From a virus (taxonomy: Duplodnaviria > Heunggongvirae > Uroviricota > Caudoviricetes): a stretch of 33,616 nucleotides of DNA. The first letter of the stretch is position 1. Each line of letters opens with the position of its first letter. The stretch covers positions 1 to 33,616 of the IMG/VR virus record IMGVR_UViG_2778261222_000001; one strand, 5' to 3'. Below the pieces are notes generated by a model, which worked only from the letters and a program-made list of their open reading frames with translations, did not search any database and was not told where the DNA came from. Positions 12,007 to 33,377 of this stretch are shown one piece after another. Position numbers and translations under genes: made by a program.

Positions 12007-13482
12007 TTAAAGTTTGAACTGAATCAGACCTGCCAGCACACGCAGCTGGTTCACCAGATTCGGGTGGCAGATAAAGTTCAGGCGGTTTTTATCACTGCTG
12101 TCGCGTGTCACCTGAAGAGTGTCCTTGTAATCGCTGAAGTTCTCCACAAGGCCCGCAGGAATAAGTTCGGTCTGGCAGATATCCAGCAGCTCTGCGGTGC
12201 ACAACTTCGGCGTCATCACCGGCTGACCGGCATCCAGTGAGTCCAGCACGTCATCATCTGCCAGCTTGTGGCGCGGATAACGGTTCGTGAAACGGTTCTT
12301 GATGATGTAACGGATACGGCCCAGCGTGGCGGGTGACTGCACATCAAGGTACGACACATCCGCATCACCGTACTGATTAACCCGGTACATGGTGATTTCA
12401 CGCTCTATGCAGACGTTATCCCCGGCGTCCACCATGTGTGTGGCAATGCTGTCATGCAGCAGCAGGTTACGTTCCGGCATATCCCAGCGAACATTACGCG
12501 CAGGCGGCAGAATGCCGGTCAGAACCAGCGTCTGAAGCGGACGCGCCGGATCAATGGCGAGGTAATACGCTGCCGTTGCGCCGTATGACGCGGCCCACAT
12601 CCACGCTGGGTGCGGTGACAGGTTGGTGCCGATACAGCTAATCAGCCAGTCATTGCGGGTTTCACCAAACGTGCCTGTCTCGCCGTGCGTGCCACGAAAC
12701 GCCGTCCACAGCTGCGCCTCCATCATTTTGAGCGGCCCCCAGCGGTTCAGCAGTTCATCACGCAGGGTGTTCAGGCTTTGCGCGTCGGTGAACGGGGCGA
12801 TGATATCGGTAAACCACTCCGGGCCGATGGCCGCAACGGCGTCTGCCATTTCCGGTGTCCCGGTGCCGCCGGTAAACGCGCTGGCTGTCACCTTCACACC
12901 TGCCGGGAAGGCTTCACCGGTGTAGTAGTTCAGGCGAACGTCGGCACCGTTGCCGGTGACACCGTGCCAGTTCACGGTCAGCTCCACGGTATCCGTGGCA
13001 TCATCCTTCACCGCAGCGGCCACCTGTGTGGCAGGCTTTTTCGTCACCGCATCAGCAATGGCTTTTGCAATGTTTTCCTTCGTAGCCCCGGCGCTCACGC
13101 TCACCTGAACGGACACACCGTTAATCAGCAGTGCCACCGTTCCGGCCTCTGTTGCTGTCCCCAGCACGGTCAGCGTGGCTTTTGCAGCAGCGCCAACAGG
13201 TGCGGCAACCGGCATTGCCCAGGTTTCCGTGTACGTGTTGGCACGACGCAGCATTTTGAGCATTTCAGCCAGCATCGACCCTTTGCCATAAAGCTGGTCT
13301 GCCTGGCTGTCACTGGTGATGCGGGTCAGTGACAGGGCGTCTGCGCTGCCGGACGATACCGCATGGCCCATGACCAGAATTTTTCGGCTTTGCGCGGATG
13401 CACCATCCAGCGCCTGAGAATTGTCGATATCGATCCAGACAAGCGGGACGCGGATATCATCAGGAATTGAACCCAGCGACAT
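12007..13482 (-). CDS. Tail sheath protein (Mu L-like)
   Basis: 491 aa; size and position match the Mu sheath protein. Confidence 0.85.
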   Translation of the reverse strand: MSLGSIPDDIRVPLVWIDIDNSQALDGASAQSRKILVMGHAVSSGSADALSLTRITSDSQADQLYGKGSMLAEMLKMLRRANTYTETWAMPVAAPVGAAAKATLTVLGTATEAGTVALLINGVSVQVSVSAGATKENIAKAIADAVTKKPATQVAAAVKDDATDTVELTVNWHGVTGNGADVRLNYYTGEAFPAGVKVTASAFTGGTGTPEMADAVAAIGPEWFTDIIAPFTDAQSLNTLRDELLNRWGPLKMMEAQLWTAFRGTHGETGTFGETRNDWLISCIGTNLSPHPAWMWAASYGATAAYYLAIDPARPLQTLVLTGILPPARNVRWDMPERNLLLHDSIATHMVDAGDNVCIEREITMYRVNQYGDADVSYLDVQSPATLGRIRYIIKNRFTNRYPRHKLADDDVLDSLDAGQPVMTPKLCTAELLDICQTELIPAGLVENFSDYKDTLQVTRDSSDKNRLNFICHPNLVNQLRVLAGLIQFKL

Positions 13483-17695: not shown

Positions 17696-18460
17696 TTACT
17701 CACTGTCAAAACGGGCCTGTTTTGTCGCCAGCTGGCGCGCCAGCTCCTGCTCACGGTTTATGCCGGGATTGTAGTTCCAGCCCGGATCAATCCCTTCCGG
17801 CACATCTTCCTCTTCGCCCGTACGTTTGTTCACCCAGCGGACAGTTCTAATTTCCGGCGCTTCGGTGTGAATGGTGCCCTGTGCCGCCAGTTGTGCATAT
17901 TCACCACGGCTGACCTGACGGATGGTGCATTTGCAGCCCCAGCCGTTAGGGGCAAAATGCGTCTGCCAGAACGGATGATCTACCGGCAGACACAGACGCG
18001 CCCATTTCACATGCTCCGCCCGGTGCTCGCGGGATGGCCCCAGCTCATAAATCAGATACGGCATGGCCCGCTTTGTCCGCTGAATGCGTTCCCACTGGCC
18101 CGCCGCGCGGGCGGTGCGCATGTTGGTGTCAAAAATCGTGCGGAGGCGGCGGTCGCTGCCCAGCTGTACGGTGCGCCTTTCACCCGTCAGCGGATCATCC
18201 ATCTCCTGAACGCCCCACCATCCGCGTTTTATCAGCAGCGGTTGCAGCGCCTCCCGGAACTCGCTGAACGTCTGCCCGCTTTGCAGGGCGTCTTCCACAA
18301 GGGCTTTCACATCCGACAACAAATCCAGTTGCAGCATTTTTGCCACGGTGAAGCTGTTCCGGTGCTCTTCCCGCCACACATCCCGGTAATCAAAACCGGG
18401 GCGCAGCTTCTTCGCCTTCAGCCACGCCAGCGCCTCTTTCGGGATGAGAGTTTCACGCAT
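17696..18460 (-). CDS. Head morphogenesis protein (Mu F-like)
   Basis: Position after the portal gene; likely start is the ATG at 18458-18460 with GGGGGA Shine-Dalgarno (track ORF extends to 18517). Confidence 0.65.
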   Translation of the reverse strand: MRETLIPKEALAWLKAKKLRPGFDYRDVWREEHRNSFTVAKMLQLDLLSDVKALVEDALQSGQTFSEFREALQPLLIKRGWWGVQEMDDPLTGERRTVQLGSDRRLRTIFDTNMRTARAAGQWERIQRTKRAMPYLIYELGPSREHRAEHVKWARLCLPVDHPFWQTHFAPNGWGCKCTIRQVSRGEYAQLAAQGTIHTEAPEIRTVRWVNKRTGEEEDVPEGIDPGWNYNPGINREQELARQLATKQARFDSE

Positions 18461-20024
18461 GACCGGTGTCCCCCAGCGCACGCGCCTTAAAGCACACCTC
18501 CGCCAGTTGCAGGGCAAAGTCGTCCGCGTTCAGCGTTTCCTGAAGCTCAGGCAGGCGTTTCAGAAAGTCATCAAAACTGTCGCATTCCTGCGCCAGTGTC
18601 AGCACCGGGTTCGTGAACGCTTCGCCTGTTTTCTGCCAGTCACGCAGGGCATCATCCACCATCTGTGCCAGTTCGTCGGGGTGTTCCCGGTTCAGGGCGA
18701 CGCGCTCGCGGTTCATCGCCACATCACCTGACATTCCGGCAGAAACCGGATGCAGAACATCAGCCCCTTCGTCCGGTTCAGCAAGGCCGAACCGGTCCCG
18801 CAGCTCCGATTCCTGAACCCGCATCCCCCGGTCAATCAGCGGCACCAGAGCATCTGTCAGCGCCTTCAGATCTTCTGCTTCACTGATACGCAGAACAACA
18901 CGGGGGTAGTGCGCCTGTGGCCCGTAGTTGGCCTCGATATAGGGACGCACCAGATATTCATTCAGCGTGTTAGCCAGCTGTCGCGCGTCCCAGCGCACAA
19001 TGTCCATGCGCACCTGATTGTGCACGTCCGCCTGTGAACGCGAACTGCCGTTATCCGTGGTCATGGTCTGCCCCAGCACAGCCTTACTGATTTGTGCATC
19101 ACACCATTCCGCCATTTCACGGAACAGTGCGCCGCCGTTATTCCGGCTGGCGGTTTCCTTCATCTCCAGTTGCATGGACTGCGGAATGGCACACCCTGCA
19201 TCCGAGGCAATGGAGGCAATCGCATCAATCAGTACGCGGATTTGCTCCTCCGTGGCGTTGGGACCGTATTTCCCCACCGTCACCGGAATGCCGAATTTTT
19301 CCGCGAATGCCCACCAGTCACGCACGGTATAGGATTTCAGCATGTACATCACCGCCACCAGACGGGCCAGACCGTTACGCAGCGGCAGACCGGATTTCAG
19401 GCGCGGCTGGTGAACAATGAATTTTCCCGGTGTCAGCGGTACGCCATCCACCGGTTCGTCATCCGTCAGCAGGCGGAACTGGCGCAGCGTGGGTTTTTCG
19501 GCTTTCAGAAAACGGGGATCAACCCACTCATAATCACGGGGCACCCAGTGGTTATTGCGGGTGTTCCACAGAATTTCACAGACCGCCACGCCTTTCCCCA
19601 GCCCGTCAAGCAGATCAAACATCAGCTCGGGGATTTGCGGCGCGGCCATCAGCTCACGGATGGCATCCGCCAGCTGCACATCGGCATCGTCGTCACTGGC
19701 AGCCACCACCACCGGCTCGATACCCGCCACCGTCAGCTTGCGGGTGCGCAGTACCGAGGCGTAATGCAAATCGCGTTCTTCCATCTCTTCGGCAAGGATA
19801 AAAAAATCACGCGTGATGCCGTCGGCGGCATTGCGCAGAATGCCTGCCAGCCTGCCGGGATTCAGCCCGGAAGCAATGCTGATGCCCGGCGAGGCCGAGC
19901 GCACGCCAGCCTGACGCGGACGGGCCTGTATTTCATCGAGCGTCTCTTTTTTGAGCCTGTCTTCCTCACCGGTTGCCGGGTTCAGCAGACGGCGAACGGC
20001 CCCGGCCAGTTGTTTCAGGTTCAC
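18453..20024 (-). CDS. Portal protein (Mu H-like)
   Basis: 523 aa; GTG start overlapping the terminase stop (GTGA) with GAGGGAGG Shine-Dalgarno; position after the large terminase. Confidence 0.85.
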   Translation of the reverse strand: MNLKQLAGAVRRLLNPATGEEDRLKKETLDEIQARPRQAGVRSASPGISIASGLNPGRLAGILRNAADGITRDFFILAEEMEERDLHYASVLRTRKLTVAGIEPVVVAASDDDADVQLADAIRELMAAPQIPELMFDLLDGLGKGVAVCEILWNTRNNHWVPRDYEWVDPRFLKAEKPTLRQFRLLTDDEPVDGVPLTPGKFIVHQPRLKSGLPLRNGLARLVAVMYMLKSYTVRDWWAFAEKFGIPVTVGKYGPNATEEQIRVLIDAIASIASDAGCAIPQSMQLEMKETASRNNGGALFREMAEWCDAQISKAVLGQTMTTDNGSSRSQADVHNQVRMDIVRWDARQLANTLNEYLVRPYIEANYGPQAHYPRVVLRISEAEDLKALTDALVPLIDRGMRVQESELRDRFGLAEPDEGADVLHPVSAGMSGDVAMNRERVALNREHPDELAQMVDDALRDWQKTGEAFTNPVLTLAQECDSFDDFLKRLPELQETLNADDFALQLAEVCFKARALGDTGHA

Positions 20025-21556
20025 AGTAAGCCTCCCTCATTTTTCAGTCCGCGTGTCAGCTTCATCTGGCGGCGCACGTTGCGTTCTTCCGGTTTCGCCG
20101 GGCGGTTCAGGCGGTGCAGCTCGTAACGGTGGCAGTCATCCTTGCTGGCAAGGAAGCCCAGGAAAATGGCCACAGCGGCGTCGCCGTGACGTTTGTGACC
20201 GTCGCTGCCTTTGGTTCGTGAATCATCAATGCCGGGAACGCCACGCAGTAACTGAATGGCCCCGAGGTCATTGATCACGTCTTCATGCTTCGGAAGGATC
20301 AGCTCATCATCTTCAAACGCTGCACGGAACCGGGGCATGTTTTCGCGGTAGAACGCCACGGACAGCATCACCTGTTCCACTTCATCGCCGTACCGCTCCG
20401 CCGCCTGTTCTGCCAGATACTGACCGTTCCCCCGCGCATCCATTTTGATACCGTCACGACGGGGCAGACGATCGCAAAGCCAGAACAGCACCTGCTCCTG
20501 CTGTTTAAACGGCACATTGCCAAGCTCAACCAGGAACGGCACCTCGCGGGTGGTGTCATCGTTCACCGTCACCGGGGCCAGTACGGTCAGGTCACCCGAA
20601 CGCGCAAAGTCTTCCCCCAGACAGTGGCGCAGATTCTTCGGGAGTTTTTTCAGCTTGGGACGCACCACCGTTTCCAGCCATTCCCGGATATCTGCCCGGC
20701 GCTGGCTTTCCGTCAGTGCGTTAAATTCCGGTGTACCGGTAAAACGCAACACTTTTCCGGTTCCACGGGCCGCACGCTCACGCAGTGAGCGGGGGATATA
20801 CGTGCCGCCGCCGTTTTTCGGGACGCAGTAATACTCCTCCAGCGCATCTTCGCGGGTGGCGGTATTTCGCAGCAGGCCTTCTTTCCATTCCGCCTCGGCT
20901 TCCGGTGACCACACCATGCCGCGCACCTGACAGATACGCCGGTACAGCCCGTCATTGCAGGCGTCATCCAGCGTGATGGTGTGAATGCGGTAATCCCGTT
21001 TTCCTGCGCGGCTTTCCTGAATCAGCTGGTTAAACAGGTTGTCCACGCCGTCATGGGTGGAAATAAGGCGAATTTTGCCGCCCCATGTTTTCAGCGGCAG
21101 CACAGCCTTCAGCAGCTCGTCCAGTTTTTCATGGAACGCGGCCTCGTCGATGGTGACATTCCCCTGCATCCCGCGAATGTTGCTCGGGTTGCTGGACAGT
21201 GCCTTGACCTTAAAACCGCTGGCGAAGTACACGACGAACGTCAGAATGTCCTTGTCTTCGTCGGTGATCACTTCCTCGCAGATTTCTTCCGCTGCCGCAT
21301 TAAACGCTTTCGCCCACATCGCCACGGCGTCGATAAATTCGCGGGCCATCTCCTTATTCGAACCGATATAAAAGTGATCGCGCCCGCCGTCTTCCTTCTT
21401 CAGTGATGCCGTCAGTGCCGCATCCGCAGCTTCCGCCCAGGTTAAACCGGTACGGCGGGATTTCTCGGCGATTTTCAGGTCGGCATCATCCGCCACCCAG
21501 CGTTTCTGATACGGCAGCAGAACATCATATTCACTGAACGTGTCCATTTGTGTCAT
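20021..21556 (-). CDS. Terminase large subunit
   Basis: 511 aa; ATGA overlap with the upstream small-subunit-like gene. Confidence 0.85.
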   Translation of the reverse strand: MTQMDTFSEYDVLLPYQKRWVADDADLKIAEKSRRTGLTWAEAADAALTASLKKEDGGRDHFYIGSNKEMAREFIDAVAMWAKAFNAAAEEICEEVITDEDKDILTFVVYFASGFKVKALSSNPSNIRGMQGNVTIDEAAFHEKLDELLKAVLPLKTWGGKIRLISTHDGVDNLFNQLIQESRAGKRDYRIHTITLDDACNDGLYRRICQVRGMVWSPEAEAEWKEGLLRNTATREDALEEYYCVPKNGGGTYIPRSLRERAARGTGKVLRFTGTPEFNALTESQRRADIREWLETVVRPKLKKLPKNLRHCLGEDFARSGDLTVLAPVTVNDDTTREVPFLVELGNVPFKQQEQVLFWLCDRLPRRDGIKMDARGNGQYLAEQAAERYGDEVEQVMLSVAFYRENMPRFRAAFEDDELILPKHEDVINDLGAIQLLRGVPGIDDSRTKGSDGHKRHGDAAVAIFLGFLASKDDCHRYELHRLNRPAKPEERNVRRQMKLTRGLKNEGGLL

Positions 21557-22134
21557 GCGCTAATCCCCAGAATTTCACGTTTGATGGTGTCAGCCGCACC
21601 ACCTGACAGACCGCCCGTTCTGACCAGTTCTTCGGTTTTCTCTGCCATCTCCTGCGCAAACGCATCACGGATCGCTTTCTCGCGTTTATGGCTGGTCATG
21701 GCTGCCGCTTCCAGACGCTGGGCAACCAGCGCCAGTTGCCCCAGCGCCTTTGGTGCTACAGGTTTGTCGTCTTCTGCCATCGACATGGACGTTTCAAAGG
21801 CCAGCGTTTTTACAAACTCCATCAGCAGCTTGCCGACGTCTGACGTCGGCGCGGAACCCAGCTTTGCCGCCCAGACTTCGGCCATTTCGCGGGAGGCGCG
21901 GATTTTGGCCCCGACTTTTTCCATGCGGATGGCATAGCGGTTTAAGCCCGTCCGGCTTAACTGCATCTCTTCCGGCAGGTTGTGTTCGTCAATCAGGGCG
22001 TTGATGGCTTCGCGGATTTCTTCCTGCGTGTGCCGCTTTTCCCGCAGCATCTGATGCAACTGCTCCCGGATGCTGTCCGGGAGTAAATCCACTTTGGAAA
22101 GACGGCCACGGGTGGGGCGTTGTTCATTTTCCAT
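21553..22134 (-). CDS. Terminase small subunit-like protein (Mu gp27-like)
   Basis: Basic N-terminus; likely start is the ATG at 22132-22134 with AGGAGG 6 nt upstream; directly precedes the large terminase. Confidence 0.6.
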   Translation of the reverse strand: MENEQRPTRGRLSKVDLLPDSIREQLHQMLREKRHTQEEIREAINALIDEHNLPEEMQLSRTGLNRYAIRMEKVGAKIRASREMAEVWAAKLGSAPTSDVGKLLMEFVKTLAFETSMSMAEDDKPVAPKALGQLALVAQRLEAAAMTSHKREKAIRDAFAQEMAEKTEELVRTGGLSGGAADTIKREILGISA

Positions 22135-22271
22135 GTGTGCCCTCCTGTTGCTCACTACGCTGTAAACTTTCGTATGCAGATTTCAGCGCGCCACTCTGGA
22201 TTTCCCGCCATGTCAGGTTGTGCGCCAGACGGCGGAGTTCATCACGGGACGCTTTACTTATCGGATTCTTT

Positions 22272-22571
22272 TTACGGTTCACGACGGCCCCCGTCTTCAG
22301 TTCCCGGTGTTTTCAGACCGGCGTATATTTCTTCGCGAACGGACCGGATATCCTTACCCAGCAGTTTCCACAGCCGCGCACATGCCGGTGATGAGCGCAG
22401 GGCACATTTCATGGGGGTATCCGGTGCATCCGGGTTCCAGGGCTTTCCGGTCTGTTGTTCATATGCACGGGCGATGGCGTTTTTCTCAATATCCGCGAGC
22501 ACAAGACAGTACGCCAGCTGCCGCACGACGGCCCGTTCTCCGCGACTTAACGGCTTCAGTTTTCGGGCCAT
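22272..22571 (-). CDS. Hypothetical protein
   Basis: 99 aa; ATG at 22569-22571 with GAGGGA Shine-Dalgarno. Confidence 0.45.
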   Translation of the reverse strand: MARKLKPLSRGERAVVRQLAYCLVLADIEKNAIARAYEQQTGKPWNPDAPDTPMKCALRSSPACARLWKLLGKDIRSVREEIYAGLKTPGTEDGGRREP

Positions 22572-22573
22572 GC

Positions 22574-22867
22574 TCAGTCCCTCGCACGGGGTTTTTTAAC
22601 GCCCGGAACGCTGGACAGGCCGTTTGCCACATCCTCGCCGCTGCCGGTGATTTCAGCCACGTAACAGCCGCCCACATCAGACAGACGAACCAGCCCCTGC
22701 TCGCGCAACCATGCAAGCTGGGTGCGTACCACATCACGGGATACCTTATGACCGTAAGCCTGAAGGCAGGTCTGCAACACGGATTCATTCGCGCTGTCGC
22801 CACAGTCCAGCAGGGAACGCAGCAACACCAGACGACGGTCTTCAGTGAGGATCTCTTTCATCGCCAT
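22574..22867 (-). CDS. Hypothetical protein, possible winged-helix fold
   Basis: 97 aa; TAATG overlap with the upstream gene. Confidence 0.45.
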   Translation of the reverse strand: MAMKEILTEDRRLVLLRSLLDCGDSANESVLQTCLQAYGHKVSRDVVRTQLAWLREQGLVRLSDVGGCYVAEITGSGEDVANGLSSVPGVKKPRARD

Positions 22868-23172
22868 TAATTTTTTTCCTTTAACTCGTTCTCTAATAAC
22901 AAATCACTGATGCGGGATACCTGGCGGATGGATGGCCCCAGCTCTTTGATTTCTCCCCGCAGGTTGCTGATATCCAGTTGCAGGCGGTGGAACTCATCAC
23001 GGTCGGGTAAATGGTGTACCTGGCTTTCCATAACCGACACGCGGGAACGGAGTGAATCAAACTCTTCACGTTTGACGTAGGTTTTCGCCAGAATCAACTG
23101 AAGCAGGTTTATTCCTGTCATCAGCAATGCCCACAGAATGGGCCAGTTGGCCCGGATCATTTCCCAGGACAC
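22867..23172 (-). CDS. Membrane-anchored coiled-coil protein (possible lysis accessory/spanin-like)
   Basis: N-terminal hydrophobic helix WPILWALLMTGINLLQLIL followed by a coiled coil; 101 aa. Confidence 0.45.
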   Translation of the reverse strand: MSWEMIRANWPILWALLMTGINLLQLILAKTYVKREEFDSLRSRVSVMESQVHHLPDRDEFHRLQLDISNLRGEIKELGPSIRQVSRISDLLLENELKEKN

Positions 23173-23384
23173 GTTTTCCTCCTGCGTTCCCGCATCTGTT
23201 GACAGTCAATACAGGTCACCACATCCGGCAGCGCCGCAAGGCGCTGTACCGGAATAACGTTCCCGCAGTCATTGCAGAAGCCCCGGCTGTGGGACGCTTC
23301 TTTTGTCCGCGTCTGCCAGGCTTTAACGACGCTCTGACGCTCGTTCAGAACCACTTCACTGATGCGGTCGATTTCGTCGGTCAT
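23157..23384 (-). CDS. TraR/DksA-family C4 zinc-finger protein
   Basis: CNDC-x17-CIDC spacing (CxxC-x17-CxxC) near the C-terminus; 75 aa. Confidence 0.7.
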   Translation of the reverse strand: MTDEIDRISEVVLNERQSVVKAWQTRTKEASHSRGFCNDCGNVIPVQRLAALPDVVTCIDCQQMRERRRKTCPGK

Positions 23385-23989
23385 TTCGGCCCCGCAGATA
23401 TTTTGTGACGGCTTGATTTGCTGTAACGGGCAAAGCCGTCAAGGGTTCGCACGCCGAGATAGCCCAGCGCAGGGGTAAGCAACATCAGCGTGATATCCCA
23501 GTCCGGTGACGGCATATGCAGCGTGATACCTCTGGCACCGGCAATGGCTCCGGCAATCTGGCCGCAGGAAAGCAACAGCACATAGGCCAGACTGCTGTAA
23601 CAGGACAGGCGGGCCAGCAGCGGGCGCGTCTGGCGCACATAGCTGTCCGTGGCGTTGTCACCATTGCGGATGGTTTCCTGCTGTTCATGGTGTGTGGCCT
23701 GCTGGTCAGCCAGCACCAGCTTCTGCCGTTCCACCTCCAGCTGTTGCAGCTGAACTTTCAGGGTTTCCATCTGCATCAGTTGCTCCGGTGACAGCATCAC
23801 CAGCTTTTGTTCCAGAATGCGTTGCTGTTCAGCCACCGGCAGGCTTTCCCGGACGCTTTCCACCATACCGGCCACCGAGTCAGCGGCGGCAGATGTACTG
23901 CCACCAAACCAGCGCCCGACGGAACGAATCAGCCCCGGCCCGGCTTTCAGCAGAACAGAGGCGATGCCTGAAAGGGTTAACGGATCCAT
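23381..23989 (-). CDS. Putative holin-like membrane protein
   Basis: 202 aa; hydrophobic N-terminal segment, central coiled coil, C-terminal hydrophobic helices; located in the lysis block. Confidence 0.4.
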   Translation of the reverse strand: MDPLTLSGIASVLLKAGPGLIRSVGRWFGGSTSAAADSVAGMVESVRESLPVAEQQRILEQKLVMLSPEQLMQMETLKVQLQQLEVERQKLVLADQQATHHEQQETIRNGDNATDSYVRQTRPLLARLSCYSSLAYVLLLSCGQIAGAIAGARGITLHMPSPDWDITLMLLTPALGYLGVRTLDGFARYSKSSRHKISAGPK

Positions 23990-24387
23990 GAATCCCCCTT
24001 ATGAAAACGGCGCTGATGTTTATAAAGTGCCGCGCAAAAAATACCGCCCAGCCAGAACGCCAGCTGATAAGGCTCCTTCAGATAAAGAATGCCGAATGTC
24101 AGCATGAAAAAACCAACGGCCCAGACCACCCATGACCACACGACAATTCGAAGGGAAGCGGCCCGGAAACGCCTTTTGGGTTGCAGGCGATAAGGTACGT
24201 TGCCCAGCTGGAAACTGTGAATCAGACAGAGTGTCGCGCCGTATGCCAGCACCATGACCGCAAACGCCCGCCATCCGGCAAAACAGCTCGCCAGAAAAAG
24301 TACTGCCGACAGCCCCAGAAACGACCACTGGCACAACATAAAGCGGGAGTAAATAACGCGAACAAAAAGACTATTCATTCTGTGCAT
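23977..24387 (-). CDS. Integral membrane protein (about 4 TM helices)
   Basis: Start at ATG 24385-24387 with AAGGA Shine-Dalgarno; four hydrophobic segments (the track ORF extends upstream with no obvious start). Confidence 0.5.
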   Translation of the reverse strand: MHRMNSLFVRVIYSRFMLCQWSFLGLSAVLFLASCFAGWRAFAVMVLAYGATLCLIHSFQLGNVPYRLQPKRRFRAASLRIVVWSWVVWAVGFFMLTFGILYLKEPYQLAFWLGGIFCAALYKHQRRFHKGDSWIR

Positions 24388-24598
24388 TGAGTTTTTCCTT
24401 GTACTTCTGGCACTGCCAGAAAATGTCCCGTGTATCCACGGAGTTCCAGCCACGCATGTAATAGCTGGCGTGTGTGCCGTCATGGCCGGTGTAGTCCACC
24501 GGCTTCGGGGGCGGGCCTCCGGCCATGCGGTGCAAAATCTCCTGACGCAGGCGGTCACGCCGCCCGGCTTTCAGTGAGGCATCCCAGCCTTTACCCAT
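24371..24598 (-). CDS. Hypothetical small protein downstream of the endolysin
   Basis: 75 aa; starts immediately after the lys stop. Confidence 0.4.
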   Translation of the reverse strand: MGKGWDASLKAGRRDRLRQEILHRMAGGPPPKPVDYTGHDGTHASYYMRGWNSVDTRDIFWQCQKYKEKLNAQNE

Positions 24599-24599
24599 A

Positions 24600-25196
24600 T
24601 CACCCCCGCGTGGCGGACATGATGCCCTGGGGGGTATCGATGATTTCCAGACAGGCGTCGGTCAGTTTTTCCATGCGGTTAAACCAGCCGTTCAGGTATT
24701 TACCCTGGGCGGGTTTTGACTTGATGATGTCGGCATAAAAGCGGGAACGACGGACAATGCAACGGGCCAGCAACCAGTCCGGGGTGGACAGGCTCACGGC
24801 CTTACGGGTACGCGGACCGATGATGCCGTCAGCATCCACATCAGCGGCTTCCTGCAAAATCCTGATGGCTTTTTTAACGCCATGCTGAACCGCCGCATCG
24901 AACACAAACATCGCCACGCCATCAGGCCACTGGTCACATCCGGCAGGCAGCCAGTAATCGCGCCAGTAAATCTGCGCAACCTGTTCGCGGGTCAAATCCC
25001 TGATGCGGGTATCCGGTTTGCCGTCACCGTTGACATCGGTTTTGCCGTCAATCACACCGTCGCGGCGGTCAGAAATGCCGTATTTAGTTTCGCCGCCACG
25101 GTCTGTGGGGTCATTGACATAGCCGCCTTCGATATCAGGACGCAGGATAAAATTCAGCGCATGTTCAAAGGTCGGGGAGAATTTTTGATTTTCCAT
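24600..25196 (-). CDS. Endolysin, GH108-type N-acetylmuramidase with peptidoglycan-binding domain
   Basis: N-terminal motif EGGYVNDPTDRGGETKYGI typical of glycoside hydrolase family 108; AGGTG Shine-Dalgarno upstream. Confidence 0.8.
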   Translation of the reverse strand: MENQKFSPTFEHALNFILRPDIEGGYVNDPTDRGGETKYGISDRRDGVIDGKTDVNGDGKPDTRIRDLTREQVAQIYWRDYWLPAGCDQWPDGVAMFVFDAAVQHGVKKAIRILQEAADVDADGIIGPRTRKAVSLSTPDWLLARCIVRRSRFYADIIKSKPAQGKYLNGWFNRMEKLTDACLEIIDTPQGIMSATRG

Positions 25197-25250
25197 AAAA
25201 GCACCTGTGAAGCAGATTTAAACGTGGTCTGCTTCATGGTGCCGGAGGCA

Positions 25251-25276
25251 TAAAAAAAGCCGGATTTACCGGCTTC
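25251..25276 (-). terminator. Rho-independent terminator (minus strand), copy 2 of the repeated element
   Basis: Same aaaaaaagccggatttaccggcttca sequence as at 17531-17556; hairpin plus seven T on the minus strand, between the moron and lys. Confidence 0.6.
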
Positions 25277-25297
25277 ATTGAATATCAGGTTATTGGC

Positions 25298-25795
25298 TCA
25301 GTTAACTTTACGGGCAGAACATGTAGTCTTCATTACTGAACGTTCAATTTTTATCTTCCAGCCATTTACTGTTTTTTCGACAGGATCATCTTCAGCTTGC
25401 TTTAAATTTTCAACTTGCATGAAATTCAGTGGGGCTGGGGTATCATCGTCCCATGATGTCGGGCGAACATAATCAGGGACAACAAAAGGCTCAAAAACAG
25501 TTTCACATAAAGCAGACGTCATTTGAGCGAACTCGTCGCTATCGGGGCGAACCGGTCCTGTAACATACTGCATTTTTATGTTGATTTCGTTATCTCGCAC
25601 AGACGCCTTTAAATCCTGATATACACCTAAGTTAAATCCTTTAAACTCAGCAATGGCAGCGTCACCTTTACCATACCAGTCGGTATAGTCAACGGATGTT
25701 TTTTTCTGAAAAACATCTTTGACTTTTTGCTGGAATGTATCCTCCGCTTGTACAGTAGTAACAGTTAGTAAAAGAATAAGGGGAAGATATTTCAT
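25298..25795 (-). CDS. Secreted protein of unknown function (moron)
   Basis: N-terminal signal peptide MKYLPLILLLTVTTVQA followed by ED; visibly AT-rich codon usage compared with flanking genes; ATGA overlap with the mor stop. Confidence 0.6.
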   Translation of the reverse strand: MKYLPLILLLTVTTVQAEDTFQQKVKDVFQKKTSVDYTDWYGKGDAAIAEFKGFNLGVYQDLKASVRDNEINIKMQYVTGPVRPDSDEFAQMTSALCETVFEPFVVPDYVRPTSWDDDTPAPLNFMQVENLKQAEDDPVEKTVNGWKIKIERSVMKTTCSARKVN

Positions 25796-26193
25796 TGTTC
25801 GTCCTTAAATAGTTGCATTTGATATTTTCCACGCTCCAGTCGGCGCATTCTTTTGATGGCCTGATATACCGTTTTGTATGTCACTTTGTAACGCTGCACC
25901 AGCTCCGCTACGTTTTTCCCATCAAAATCACGCCAGATGCGCATGTCTCTGATAAGATTTTCCAGTATTTTCCCTTTCGGAACATATACCTGAATCCCAC
26001 CGATATGATTGCAAATCGCCACTACCAGCTCAAGGGAGTGGGCAGGGTTAACTCCAAGCCTTATCAGCTCCTGTCGCAACAGAGCATTCAGCTCAGCCAG
26101 TAAAGATGGAAATCCCGATTTTTCCTGAACATCATCAAAATATTCAAGGATACTGTCGTCCTGATAATCACCAAATAAATCCTGCTCTTTCAT
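25792..26193 (-). CDS. mor: Mor/C-family transcriptional activator (Mor by position)
   Basis: 133 aa; C-terminal region YKTVYQAIKRMRR fits the Mor/C helix-turn-helix as I recall it; follows gemA as mor does in Mu. Confidence 0.7.
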   Translation of the reverse strand: MKEQDLFGDYQDDSILEYFDDVQEKSGFPSLLAELNALLRQELIRLGVNPAHSLELVVAICNHIGGIQVYVPKGKILENLIRDMRIWRDFDGKNVAELVQRYKVTYKTVYQAIKRMRRLERGKYQMQLFKDEQ

Positions 26194-26741
26194 AGAACTA
26201 TTCTCCCGCTGTTTCTGGCGCGGGCATACGCACTGGTCAGTGCATCATATCCGCGCAGTTCCCGCCCGGTTTCGCTCACAGGTAAAGGCATGCCATGTCG
26301 GGCAAAGGCTTCCCGGATGCAGCGCATATGCCACTGTTTGAGCGTTTCGAGCACAACCTGCAACGATTCCCCATGACACCAGGCCAGCGTGGAAACACCC
26401 TGACCACCATTACGTCTGGCCGTCAGGCGTTCAACGTATTTGTCCAGCGCGGCGTCGCTGATATCGGATACGAAACCATCAAGAAACATCTGCTGCCAGA
26501 TTTTATAAATCTTCTCGCGCGGTGTGACATGCCCCTTAAAGCGACGGCGGGGATGTTTATTCTGCTTTTTAAAACCGCGCTCTTTCATGGCATCGAGCAC
26601 TTGTTCCAGTTGTGCAACGGACAGCTCGCGGCAACTGGTTTTGCCCGTGCACTGCACCAGAAAGGCGCGGTAAGTGTCATCGTCGAGGTGCAACTCCCGG
26701 CGGGCAACATGAATTAATTTAATCAGGGATGTGCGACTCAT
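26190..26741 (-). CDS. gemA: GemA-like regulatory protein
   Basis: Position immediately upstream of mor; ATG at 26739-26741 (track ORF begins at a GTG at 26786). Confidence 0.65.
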   Translation of the reverse strand: MSRTSLIKLIHVARRELHLDDDTYRAFLVQCTGKTSCRELSVAQLEQVLDAMKERGFKKQNKHPRRRFKGHVTPREKIYKIWQQMFLDGFVSDISDAALDKYVERLTARRNGGQGVSTLAWCHGESLQVVLETLKQWHMRCIREAFARHGMPLPVSETGRELRGYDALTSAYARARNSGRIVL

Positions 26742-27108
26742 TTTGCCCCATCTCCTTAATGCAGTGTTTTTCGACCCATGCCACACGAGCAGAATTCAGG
26801 TGGCATCTGTCATGTAGGCATTCATCATGGTAGTGCACGTTATCTACATTAAATGGCAGGGATTCATCCAGCCCACTCGCGACAAAATCCGCATGTAATT
26901 GTTCTAGCGCAGCCTCGCTGTCTGCTCCGATTGATTCAAAATAGTCATAAACATTGGCGCATAATCCGACTCCCCGAATAAACCCTTCCCCTTCCGTTTC
27001 TTGCGCTCCGTTTTTTAACCACTGGTTATAGGCGACATAAAAATCATAAAGATGTTTTCTGGTGCTGGCGGATGCGGATTTAATTTCATTTTTCTCTGCG
27101 TTATTCAT
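26719..27108 (-). CDS. Hypothetical early protein with His/Cys-rich motif
   Basis: 129 aa; HYHDECLHDRCH motif suggests metal binding. Confidence 0.45.
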   Translation of the reverse strand: MNNAEKNEIKSASASTRKHLYDFYVAYNQWLKNGAQETEGEGFIRGVGLCANVYDYFESIGADSEAALEQLHADFVASGLDESLPFNVDNVHYHDECLHDRCHLNSARVAWVEKHCIKEMGQNESHIPD

Positions 27109-30282: not shown

Positions 30283-31215
30283 TTACCACCAGTTCAGTAA
30301 CTTCGGGTTGCTGTAAACCTCTTTAAAAGCCGCTTTAATGTAGCCTTTGGATAACGGAACACCTTTCCCGCTGGCTGCCAGCCATGCCTGATTCAACGTA
30401 TGAGTTAATACACGTAATGCACCTGGTTTTTCCGCTATGCTCTGCATGAGTGATAATTCATCTTCACCCTCAATGCCCCAGGCTTTCGCAATTGCCACCA
30501 CATCAGCCTTTTTGGCTTTACGCAGTTGTTTTGTTCTGGCGAAACGGCTGAACAAACGCGCAAGGTCATCCGTTCCCCGATGTGTGGCTTTGGCTAATTG
30601 GCTTGGGTTACCAATCAATACCATCCCGACGCCTGTTGCATCCTGAATGGCGCGCAACTGCTCCAGCCCGTCCATGCTCAGGTGGTCAGCTTCATCCACA
30701 ATCACCAGACCGCGTGTGCCGTTCAGTTTTTTGCGAATGGCACGGGTCAGCGCGCCTTTACTCCTTTGCGGATTATCAATTCCCAGCGCGTCTGCCAGTT
30801 CCAGCAGGCACTCGGTCACTGTTGAGTGCGCAGGGGAAAGGGTCACCATCCAGGTATTAGATACACGGTTACTGTATTCACGGGCCGCAACGGTTTTACC
30901 AACACCCGGTACACCAACCAGAACGCTGATACAGCCCATAACACGCACGGTCTGAAACAGCTCGCGCAAATCACGGAGGGTTTGTGTTTCCACAAGTTGC
31001 GGTGCACCTGGTAATTCCTGGCTTTTCTGCCAGTCCTGATGCCACACCAGTAATTTGTCATGCATCCCTTCGGTATCGCCTTTGTAACGACCTTTGCGAA
31101 GTTCCGATAGCGTGGCCTCTGACACGCCCGCCTCTTTAGCAATAACACCCTGAGTTTTTACGCCGTCGGAAATCAGCGCATTAATCGTATTGAAAACATC
31201 ATTAATATCGGTCAT
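30283..31215 (-). CDS. B: Transposition protein B (AAA+ ATPase, target DNA activator)
   Basis: 310 aa; Walker A motif GVPGVGKT; N-terminal HTH; follows the transposase; GAGGAAG Shine-Dalgarno. Confidence 0.9.
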   Translation of the reverse strand: MTDINDVFNTINALISDGVKTQGVIAKEAGVSEATLSELRKGRYKGDTEGMHDKLLVWHQDWQKSQELPGAPQLVETQTLRDLRELFQTVRVMGCISVLVGVPGVGKTVAAREYSNRVSNTWMVTLSPAHSTVTECLLELADALGIDNPQRSKGALTRAIRKKLNGTRGLVIVDEADHLSMDGLEQLRAIQDATGVGMVLIGNPSQLAKATHRGTDDLARLFSRFARTKQLRKAKKADVVAIAKAWGIEGEDELSLMQSIAEKPGALRVLTHTLNQAWLAASGKGVPLSKGYIKAAFKEVYSNPKLLNWW

Positions 31216-31289: not shown

Positions 31290-33377
31290 TCAGGCCAGCG
31301 GATCATCCTGTTCCTGTATGGCTGCAAGTTTCTGCAAACCCAGCCTGAAATCGCGTTCATAATCTTCGTCGTAATCCTCCTCATAATCCTGTTGCTGGAT
31401 GGTTACCGTATTACCAACCGGGCGATAAACATTATCCAGCCAGGGTTCAGTCTGTTTGTGCTCCAGAATCTGAATGCCTTCATCCTCAGCATCACGAATT
31501 TTTTCCTCAGCGCGTTTGCGCATTCCTTTAATACGCTGCTGTTGTTTGTGATATTCAGCACTGACAGCAAAGGCTGCGCGTTTATTGCCGTTCCATATCG
31601 CCTCACAGATAAAGCTGCCGTCCTTGCGACGTACCGTAATTCGCTCGGCGTCATGAATGTCATAACTGATAAGCACTTTGCGACCGTGTTCGTCACGCAA
31701 CTCCGGCGCGTAGTAAATATTGTTCAGCCACTGAATTTCGCAGCGTCTTACCGGTCGTTCCACCATCGGGCGGAACATGTCGCGCAGCTCAAGATCACTC
31801 AGCCACTCAATTTCGGTGTCTTCTTCTGCTAGGCGTTTTTTTCTGAACTCTGCCGGGCTGTAATGCCGCCCGTTCGGTTTCATCGGCAGCTCAGAATGTG
31901 GGCGGTTGTTGTACCATTCCACGCCTTCACGAATAGCCTCAATAAGCTCCGCCCACGATGGTAGCTCGCGCATTGCAGCTTTCTGTCGGTCGTTCAGAGG
32001 CTTGTCCTGTTGCATGGCGTTAAACGCTGAACGCAGATCACGGTTAAGTACACGCAACGATTCCCGGTCAGCACCCTTGCCAAAATAGGTGCGATACCTC
32101 CTGGCTATACGCATTGGCAGCGTCCGGTTCAGGCGTTCAATAATGCCGCGCCCCTGTGGATTACCGGCAATACCTGTTGGGTGTTTAATCCCCAGGCGGG
32201 GCAGAATACCCACGACCTCTTTGTCCAGCATGTCAGCCGTTTCACCAGAACCGTTATCCGAGTAATACAGAAACGGTTTTCCGTGGTTGCGAATGCCGTG
32301 CTGTATCGCACCGGCAACGGCGAACACGTTCTCGGCAAGGTCAAGACTCCAGCCAACAACAAACCGGGTTCCACCGTCGATCACAAATGTGACTTCCGGT
32401 GAGAATGGACGCCCGTGGATCGGATGTGCACATTTCAGCTTCATACCGTGACCGTCACCAATCCAGACATAATTCACCGGCATAGCTGCCCAGTCGCGAC
32501 GGGTGAATCCTTCAAGCTGACGGTATTCACTGCCGGTAACACGGCCTTTTTGTTTCACCACTTCCGGCAATTTTTTCATGGCATAACGAACCACATCGTA
32601 AGAGGGCATCACCTCTATCATGTAGGGTTCGTCTGCATGGCGACGCTGCCATTCCGCGACAAAATCTTCGTAGGCTTCTGACATAGATCTGCCATTCGCC
32701 TGGCGATACTGCGCCAGAAATTCAGGCAGCCAGCTAATTTCTTCCGGTTTTATTTCGTCGCGTTTTCCCGGTGCCAGTAACAGCAGCCGTTCTGCGGCGT
32801 TCTGTGATTGGTTGTATTTCAGCACCCACTGATAAAGCGGGTCACGACTGATGGTGCGATTAGCTCCACGTTTTGCATTGGCGGTAGCTGTGGCCTGTTG
32901 CAGGCGTTCCGGTAGTTCACCTTTACGGGCTTTTTCGACAAGATAGTTAATGGCTTTCAGCCGCCCGAGATTACCGTCGCTTTCCAGCTTCAGTACTTCC
33001 ACCACCAGCGCAGCCCTTGCTTCAGATACCCGACGCTGATTTTCGGTCAGCGTATTCAGGCGTTCTTCCATCAGTTGTGGCGAACCGCGATATGCTTCGA
33101 TTGCCTGGACAGCATCAGGATTGCGTGTTTTTCTGACAACAGCTTTCACTTCAGAAACATCGTTCTCTTTAGCCACCAGTTGTTCCACATAGCGTTCACG
33201 CAGTGCCTTTTGTGTTATTTCCGGCAGACAATCAATGTGGTATTCAATGGCTTTTGTACCTGCGCGTTTACGTCGGAGATGTTCTGATGAAGCCAGTTTT
33301 TTTATGGCGTACCTCACACCCTGCGCGCTTCCCGGCATACCTGGTAGCCCTACGAGTTCGTTTACTGACACAAACAT
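31290..33377 (-). CDS. A: Mu-type DDE transposase A
   Basis: 695 aa; position after ner and before B; size comparable to MuA. Confidence 0.9.
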   Translation of the reverse strand: MFVSVNELVGLPGMPGSAQGVRYAIKKLASSEHLRRKRAGTKAIEYHIDCLPEITQKALRERYVEQLVAKENDVSEVKAVVRKTRNPDAVQAIEAYRGSPQLMEERLNTLTENQRRVSEARAALVVEVLKLESDGNLGRLKAINYLVEKARKGELPERLQQATATANAKRGANRTISRDPLYQWVLKYNQSQNAAERLLLLAPGKRDEIKPEEISWLPEFLAQYRQANGRSMSEAYEDFVAEWQRRHADEPYMIEVMPSYDVVRYAMKKLPEVVKQKGRVTGSEYRQLEGFTRRDWAAMPVNYVWIGDGHGMKLKCAHPIHGRPFSPEVTFVIDGGTRFVVGWSLDLAENVFAVAGAIQHGIRNHGKPFLYYSDNGSGETADMLDKEVVGILPRLGIKHPTGIAGNPQGRGIIERLNRTLPMRIARRYRTYFGKGADRESLRVLNRDLRSAFNAMQQDKPLNDRQKAAMRELPSWAELIEAIREGVEWYNNRPHSELPMKPNGRHYSPAEFRKKRLAEEDTEIEWLSDLELRDMFRPMVERPVRRCEIQWLNNIYYAPELRDEHGRKVLISYDIHDAERITVRRKDGSFICEAIWNGNKRAAFAVSAEYHKQQQRIKGMRKRAEEKIRDAEDEGIQILEHKQTEPWLDNVYRPVGNTVTIQQQDYEEDYDEDYERDFRLGLQKLAAIQEQDDPLA

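Follow-up and report, generated by a model that had tools for sequence, protein, structure and literature searches.

A TraR-type zinc-finger gene in the late lysis and packaging operon of a Mu-like Escherichia coli prophage

Introduction

What does a short TraR-like protein do when its gene lies among the lysis and packaging genes of a phage? Proteins of the TraR type let mobile elements reprogram the host RNA polymerase (RNAP) without triggering the stringent response. The gene considered here lies at 23157..23384 on the minus strand of the window, by which we mean the whole 33,616-nucleotide stretch of DNA that was analyzed. The window is a Mu-like transposable myovirus prophage of Escherichia coli with every gene on the minus strand. 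A preliminary description had placed the gene product in the TraR/DksA family and had proposed that, in a phage with no recognizable second Mor/C activator, such a factor could help to redirect host transcription during late development. The family, its mechanism, its phage homologues, and the RefSeq annotation of the window protein are already known. Here we ask how far the known mechanism can be carried over to this protein and to its position in the genome.

Results

A DksA/TraR-family protein of 75 residues

The ORF starts with ATG and stops with TGA, and encodes a protein of 75 amino acids (MTDEIDRISEVVLNERQSVVKAWQTRTKEASHSRGFCNDCGNVIPVQRLAALPDVVTCIDCQQMRERRRKTCPGK). Its ATG, at 23384, is the earliest start codon in the open frame. 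The four cysteines are arranged as C37-N-D-C40 and C58-I-D-C61 with 17 residues between the pairs, on the minus strand and exactly in the CxxC-x17-CxxC spacing of the preliminary description; the codon for C37 is at 23274-23276. Sequence, Pfam match, and alignment place the C4 zinc knuckles at residues 37-61 (23202..23276, minus strand), with I44, P45, and R48 between the cysteine pairs.

The protein scores 42.3 bits against Pfam PF01258 (zf-dskA_traR; gathering score 24.9; E = 7.5e-11). NCBIfam model TIGR02419 ('C4_traR_proteo') describes the 'phage/conjugal plasmid C-4 type zinc finger protein, TraR family', and residues 3-66 match its positions 1-64 of 64 with 61.4 bits, only 1.7 bits above the cut-off of 59.7. 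We assigned proteins to the TraR subfamily by a full-length match above the curated cut-off together with a length of about 65-80 amino acids, and the 75-residue protein shows both. Residues 1-73 match PHROG 54, 'DksA-like zinc-finger protein' (E = 1.2e-19), which also contains F TraR, lambda Orf73, and P2 Orf82. Solved DksA and TraR chains in the PDB match by sequence with E of about 1e-6, and a near-identical E. coli protein is named 'TraR/DksA C4-type zinc finger protein' in RefSeq. Such agreement with the family is far more than chance would give.

The equivalog models of individual family members score below their cut-offs on the window protein. This holds for NF010268 (F TraR; 29.9 versus 108) and NF008243 (YbiI; 36.7 versus 96), as well as for the DksA models TIGR02420 (31.3 versus 115.5) and NF008045 (32.1 versus 289). 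Because the score is below the NF010268 cut-off, the protein is not an orthologue of F TraR.

An AlphaFold model based on an alignment of 66 homologues reached a moderate pLDDT of 78.7; a model from the single sequence was poorer (62.8). The better model predicts helices at residues 3-27, 46-51, and 59-71, with the zinc domain between the first and the last of these. The predicted N-terminal helix (residues 3-27; 23304..23378, minus strand) has a pLDDT of 78-87, and the predicted C-terminal helix (residues 59-71) is encoded by 23172..23210 on the same strand. The model thus has the three-part architecture of TraR, namely an N-terminal helix, a zinc globule, and a C-terminal helix. In a Foldseek comparison with the PDB, the best match was RNAP-bound TraR (6n57_M; E = 4.9e-4, TM 0.56), followed by 5w1s_M and then by RNAP-bound DksA. 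The window protein is therefore a short DksA/TraR-family member of the TraR type. Passage of both the Pfam and TIGR02419 cut-offs, membership in PHROG 54, the best fold match, and the RefSeq name all bear out the family assignment made earlier.

Residues that contact RNA polymerase in TraR are largely conserved, with exceptions at the tip and at the Si3 interface

An exhaustive search of 1.84 billion representative proteins found 453 relatives at E <= 0.001; a faster word-indexed protein search returned close relatives only. We aligned 66 homologues of TraR length together with F TraR (67 sequences) using MAFFT, and took the roles of TraR residues from papers in eLife (2019) and mBio (2022) (PMC6970531, PMC9239242). 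Invariant in 67/67 sequences are C37, C40, R48, C58, and C61, and D3, D6, I44, Q62, and E66 are conserved in at least 90%. The window protein keeps all of them.

The N-terminal helix of TraR (residues 2-27) threads the secondary channel of RNAP and brings its tip within a few angstroms of the active-site Mg2+; TraR function requires D3 and D6, the two aspartates of the DxxDxA motif at the tip (PMC6970531, PMC9239242). The corresponding tip of the window protein, D3-E-I-D6-R-I8, reads DxxDxI in place of the family motif DxxDxA, with D3 encoded at 23376-23378 and D6 at 23367-23369. D3 occurs in 64/67 and D6 in 66/67 sequences of the alignment. A lack of acidic N-terminal residues had been named in the preliminary description as evidence against secondary-channel function; both aspartates are present and belong to the residues conserved in at least 90% of the 67 sequences. 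Position 8 is more variable (A in 53 sequences, I in 6, and V in 4), and the window protein has Ile instead of A8, as does every allele of the E. coli prophage clade.

R48 of TraR touches the beta' rim helices, where the zinc globular domain is seated (PMC6970531, PMC9239242), and this residue is found also in 50/50 distinct relatives encoded in the same genomic slot (see below). P43 and P45 matter for TraR binding, and P43A weakens it (PMC6970531); the window protein has Val at position 43 and keeps P45. E46, R49, and K50 of TraR touch beta'Si3 and account for about half of activation and little of inhibition (PMC6970531). These three interface residues are replaced by Val46, Leu49, and Ala50 here. 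At position 49, the 67 sequences have L in 32 cases and R in 23, such that the R48-L49 pair represents the majority state, and the same-slot relatives all have L or I. In the C-terminal helix, which in TraR touches the beta lobe/Si1 (PMC9239242), Q62, E66, R67, R69, and K70 are shared with F TraR. Not all family members of other lengths behave like DksA or TraR (PMC9239242).

The gene lies within the late operon

The early end of the window carries genes for the Mu transposase (31290-33377), MuB (30283-31215), GemA (26190-26786), and Mor (25792-26193), all on the minus strand like the genes that follow. Searches with Mu Mor (E = 1.4e-52) and Mu C (E = 1.7e-15) match only the ORF at 25792-26193, so the window holds a single gene of the Mor/C activator family, as had been stated in the preliminary description. 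An ORF of 165 codons without a family match follows at 25298-25795, in a low-GC stretch. A strong intrinsic terminator-like hairpin with an 8-bp stem and a T-run (25276..25256, minus strand) closes the Mor operon about 60 nucleotides before the start of the GH108 endolysin gene (24600-25196; with a PG_binding_3 domain), with which the late operon begins.

Between the endolysin gene and the TraR-like gene, at about 23381-24598, are three genes for small or membrane proteins of PHROGs 2121, 12596, and 1544. The PHROG 12596 membrane protein is encoded at 23977-24339. The PHROG 1544 protein, a membrane protein of 202 amino acids with weak, sub-threshold similarity to GTA_holin_3TM, is encoded at 23381-23989 directly upstream of the TraR-like gene. 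Directly downstream is a DUF2730 gene (22867-23172; PF10805, E = 1.3e-30). Mu gp25, the 'releasin' required for SAR-endolysin release, belongs to the DUF2730 family (PMC9239132). Then come genes for a PHROG 436 protein at the position of Mu gp26 (22574-22867), a 99-amino acid PHROG 8988 protein (22272-22571), a 52-amino acid product named 'hypothetical' by PGAP in a related genome (22124-22282), the gp27 small terminase (21553-22155), the large terminase (20021-21556), and a Mu-type portal (18453-20024), with the tail sheath gene further along at 12007-13482.

Neighboring reading frames abut or overlap all the way from the endolysin gene, past the TraR-like gene, to that for the PHROG 8988 protein. 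The stop codon of the 202-amino acid membrane protein gene and the start of the TraR-like gene form an ATGA overlap (23381..23384), and a second ATGA, at 23157..23160, joins the stop of the TraR-like gene to an in-frame ATG of the DUF2730 gene, as it does in IMG/VR loci L025-L042. A scan of the minus strand from the terminator to the TraR-like gene for sigma-70-like sites found none. Based on the abutting or overlapping frames and the lack of an internal promoter-like site, the TraR-like gene is a late gene that is co-transcribed with lysis and packaging genes, and the ATGA overlaps couple it to them in translation. The late location proposed in the preliminary description is thus confirmed: the gene is downstream of Mor and the terminator, after the endolysin gene, and before the genes for the small and large terminase.

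The start of the DUF2730 gene is itself ambiguous. The ORF list and PGAP place it at GTG 23172, which gives a 16-nucleotide overlap with the TraR-like gene. A start at ATG 23160 yields the classic ATGA stop/start overlap and agrees with the alignment of relatives, and the window protein would then begin with MIRANW.

The pairing with DUF2730 is conserved in Mu-like relatives

We used the downstream DUF2730 gene as an anchor for synteny and considered the best 80 of 167 confirmed IMG/VR loci, in which DUF2730 is 56-100% identical to that of the window. In 80/80 of these best loci, a TraR-like ORF is located directly upstream of DUF2730 on the same strand, with an overlap of up to 13 nucleotides or a gap within 16 nucleotides. 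These loci are not independent, since they represent one lineage with 56 distinct TraR-like proteins. The same gene order is present in Klebsiella phage Kp4866-3, Vibrio phage martha 12B12 and its relatives, Shewanella phage MuM16-2, and Vibrio phage ZX4290: Mor, endolysin, a small protein, a membrane protein of roughly 200 amino acids, the TraR-like protein, DUF2730, a gp26-like protein, and the small terminase. In Klebsiella phage Kp4866-3, the upstream neighbor is the same as in the window. For the Burkholderia transposable phage KS10, a dksA/traR gene between endolysin and small terminase was noted in 2008 (PMC2628397).

The tip motif varies among same-slot relatives, being D-x-x-D-x-I in the E. 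coli clade and D-x-x-D-x-A in others. Position 3 is Lys or Arg in 19/50 distinct full-length same-slot proteins (for example, MTKAFDRASD...), which shows that the lineage does not hold strictly to an acidic tip. In this tally by fixed position, three sequences with one residue less (MDDFDRA...) are out of register, such that the counts of R at position 6 and three of the four counts of S at position 8 are artefacts. The K/R3 variants come from IMG/VR contigs L043-L104 (for example, L045:2778-3008) and from L004:3001-3231, and they form a natural variant series. A characterized protein with K3 is Xenorhabdus bovienii Gp34 (MSKALDLA), which binds RNAP well and inhibits more weakly (PMC9239242). 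We considered Gp34 as a Mu-type relative and rejected it, because its Table S4 sequence resembles P2 Orf82.

In Mu itself, gp24 (L003:3025-3219; NC_000929 11524-11718) is a protein of 64 amino acids encoded directly upstream of gp25 (DUF2730). It has the CxxC-x17-CxxC spacing, and its N terminus, MNEDQNRA, recalls MxDxxDRA. On the other hand, it gives no match to Pfam zf-dskA_traR, belongs to PHROG 3260 and not to PHROG 54, reaches an hhalign probability of only 45%, and lacks R48. These comparisons did not establish homology; Mu itself may carry a TraR-like gene here that has degenerated.

Alleles of the gene show purifying selection

Prophages in 51/5426 complete E. coli genomes match the region at 91-97% identity. 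A megablast search of the phage collection with 21500-25300 gave no match, so no GenBank phage isolate is close at the DNA level, and the element was found just as an E. coli prophage in those genomes and in IMG/VR contigs. We compared 13 distinct nucleotide alleles from the window, 18 IMG/VR contigs, and one E. coli chromosome. Relative to the window allele, dN/dS ranged from 0.19 to 0.71 in 12 comparisons and was mostly 0.2-0.35. Variation among alleles falls mainly in the linker (positions 24-36), and there is none at D3, D6, I8, the cysteines, or R48. The frame is intact in 18/18 viral contigs and in isolated plaque-forming phages. The TraR-like gene is thus real and under purifying selection.

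A few E. coli assemblies carry frameshifted or truncated alleles (P0014, P0016-P0019), whose first 27-47 residues are identical before the frame is lost. These broken alleles are occasional decay in resident prophages, as expected for prophages.

Discussion

Comparison with characterized homologues

F TraR (PDB 6N57, 5W1S) is the best structural match of the window protein. The two proteins, of 73 and 75 amino acids, respectively, align without gaps, and Cys 37, 40, 58, and 61 coincide. D3, D6, G41, N42, I44, P45, R48, P53, Q62, E66, R67, R69, and K70 are identical. Both genes lie deep within a long operon of a mobile element, which is a conjugative plasmid in the case of F TraR and a phage here. 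Overall identity is only about 30%, and F TraR has A8, P43, and E46/R49/K50 where the window protein has Ile, Val, and Val/Leu/Ala. In vitro, F TraR raises the activity of three tra promoters 2- to 3.2-fold (PMC9239242).

Published assays of five phage homologues gave the same result for each: binding to RNAP at the DksA site, inhibition of rrnB P1, and complementation of a dksA deletion (PMC9239242). Among those of the tested homologues that we compared by sequence, P2 Orf82 has the highest identity with the window protein, at about 40%, and both are encoded by E. coli phages and share the DxxDxI tip (MPDNVDFI in Orf82, MTDEIDRI here). P2 Orf82 'lacks A8' yet binds RNAP like TraR, with an IC50 for rrnB P1 of 250 nM compared with 50 nM, an approximately 5-fold difference; it activates thrABC and argI 2- to 4-fold and, upon induction, complements a dksA deletion (PMC9239242). 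It differs from the window protein in having R48-R49 instead of R48-L49, and its gene is part of the early Pe replication operon instead of a late lysis and packaging operon.

Lambda Orf73 is likewise a TraR-type protein of an E. coli phage, but it is expressed from the early pL transcript (exo-xis region), has six cysteines and a full DxxDxA motif, and is only about 30% identical. Inhibition of rrnB P1 depends on its D3 and D6 and is weakened by D6N and, strongly, by D3N; Orf73 raises phage yield about 4-fold, and shows little or no activation (PMC9239242). It is almost without effect on lambda's own lytic promoters pL, pR, and pR' (PMC9239242).

E. coli DksA, the best PDB match by sequence (E = 9.5e-07), has the same zinc-finger domain, and in the HMMER alignment R48-L49 of the window protein matches the 'RRLEARP' segment of DksA. 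DksA is longer, with 151 amino acids and a coiled coil, and needs ppGpp.

Closer in genomic position are TraR/DksA-type genes annotated in four transposable phages, Burkholderia KS10 (gp7), Vibrio martha 12B12, Shewanella MuM16-2 (p23), and Vibrio ZX4290. These genes occupy the same slot from the lysis genes to the small terminase, directly upstream of DUF2730 where DUF2730 is present. Their products are 33-45% identical to the window protein and have A8, as opposed to I8 in the E. coli prophage clade. All four phage homologues of known context that have been characterized lie in early or regulatory regions and not in late ones (PMC9239242).

Proposed role and alternatives

We consider it probable, at about 0.7, that the window protein binds RNAP as a secondary-channel factor of the TraR type. 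Made late in the lytic cycle, it would mainly damp promoters of rRNA and ribosomal-protein genes. Once the late operon is switched on in a Mor-dependent manner, the protein would be synthesized and would bind host RNAP without contacting DNA. The N-terminal helix would enter the secondary channel and bring D3 and D6 near the active site, R48 would sit on the beta' rim helices, and the C-terminal helix would contact the beta lobe/Si1. Promoters with short-lived open complexes, namely those of rRNA and ribosomal-protein genes, would then be inhibited independently of ppGpp. Polymerase and nucleotides would thereby become available for late phage genes, at a stage when the cell has no further use for new ribosomes. 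With Ile in place of A8 and the beta'Si3-contact residues absent, full binding would be expected together with a potency below that of F TraR, as in P2 Orf82, and with weak direct activation.

Several observations count against the RNAP-binding reading: I8, V43, Val/Leu/Ala at positions 46/49/50, the narrow TIGR02419 margin, and K/R3 in 19/50 relatives. We are less certain of the specific physiological role than of the mechanism. Since the characterized phage homologues of known context are early or regulatory genes and the window gene is late, its physiological role may differ from theirs.

The preliminary description had linked the protein to the lack of a second Mor/C homologue, and one version of this link is a protein that acts mainly on the phage's own late promoters, as a co-activator that makes up for the missing activator. 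The action of F TraR on tra promoters is a precedent for a TraR-type protein that acts on promoters of its own element (PMC9239242). However, the gene is itself downstream of the start of the late operon, and its product therefore cannot switch on late transcription; lying after the terminator and the endolysin gene and having no promoter-like site of its own, it could at most provide feedback. The slot is filled in every relative examined, which makes the gene look like a constant component of the module. Moreover, the Si3-contact residues that give about half of TraR activation are replaced, and lambda Orf73 barely affected pL, pR, and pR' (PMC9239242). We thus regard co-activation of late promoters as unlikely and find no support for a connection with a missing C activator, whereas the broader part of the proposal, a polymerase factor that redirects host transcription in late development, agrees with the reading that we favor. 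A modest positive feedback on late promoters, like that of F TraR on tra promoters, could still accompany it.

It is quite unlikely that the protein works primarily with its neighbors in the lysis cassette, DUF2730 or the 202-amino acid membrane protein, for example in the timing of lysis, with RNAP not its main or not its only partner. The gene adjoins DUF2730 in 80/80 best contigs and in all matching isolated phages, and ATGA overlaps couple it to both neighbors. In addition, Vibrio phage VP882 TraR works in complex with QisA, a co-derepressed partner (bioRxiv 10.64898/2026.07.27.740977). Yet growth arrest by VP882 TraR still requires the RNAP-binding motif (bioRxiv 10.64898/2026.07.27.740977), and the most conserved residues of the window protein and its homologues (D3, D6, R48, Q62, and E66) are those with contacts or functions at RNAP in TraR. 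A fixed gene order is common in phage late modules without physical interaction, and the published reconstruction of Mu lysis makes no mention of gp24.

A combination of both activities would be very unlikely, but can be formulated by analogy with VP882 TraR-QisA: the TraR-like protein and a membrane-tethered DUF2730 protein might form a fixed two-gene unit that ties the shut-off of host transcription, physically or in time, to the control of lysis. If this were true, the replaced beta'Si3-contact surface could be a surface for binding the partner.

That the gene is a decaying, functionless TraR remnant carried in prophages is extremely improbable, because dN/dS is well below 1, the frame is intact in 18/18 viral contigs and in plaque-forming phages, and all invariant family residues are kept, despite a few frameshifted E. 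coli alleles and the variation at positions 3 and 8 among relatives.

The TraR-like gene and its relatives lie in the late lysis and packaging operon in all Mu-like phages examined, and a TraR-type action of the window protein on RNAP would show the mechanism at work at the end of the lytic cycle as well. In the papers that we consulted, we found no description of the strict pairing with DUF2730 in a late operon, of the clade-specific I8 and K/R3, or of the absent Si3-contact residues. The gain over earlier work is incremental. Natural variants with I8, with K/R3 in sister clades, and without the Si3-contact residues are available for structure-function work.

Other features of the region

The endolysin encoded at 24600-25196 lacks a hydrophobic SAR segment at its N terminus, although the phage encodes a homologue of the DUF2730 releasin and two membrane proteins. 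The role of DUF2730 beside a soluble endolysin is a question that was raised earlier (PMC9239132).

The 165-amino acid product of the ORF at 25298-25795 has a clear signal peptide (MKYLPLILLLTVTTVQA/ED), and the ORF lies in a stretch with a GC content of 43% compared with about 57%. Searches of Pfam, PHROG, and the PDB gave no match. We considered this ORF, given its position after Mor, as a hidden C-type activator gene and rejected it on account of the signal peptide and the lack of a family or PDB match. It looks like a moron-type secreted accessory gene at the site of Mu genes 18-20 and C.

Between the gp26-like gene and the small terminase gene, the Klebsiella relative carries an ORF of 91 codons where the window has the 52-amino acid ORF and the gene for the PHROG 8988 protein.
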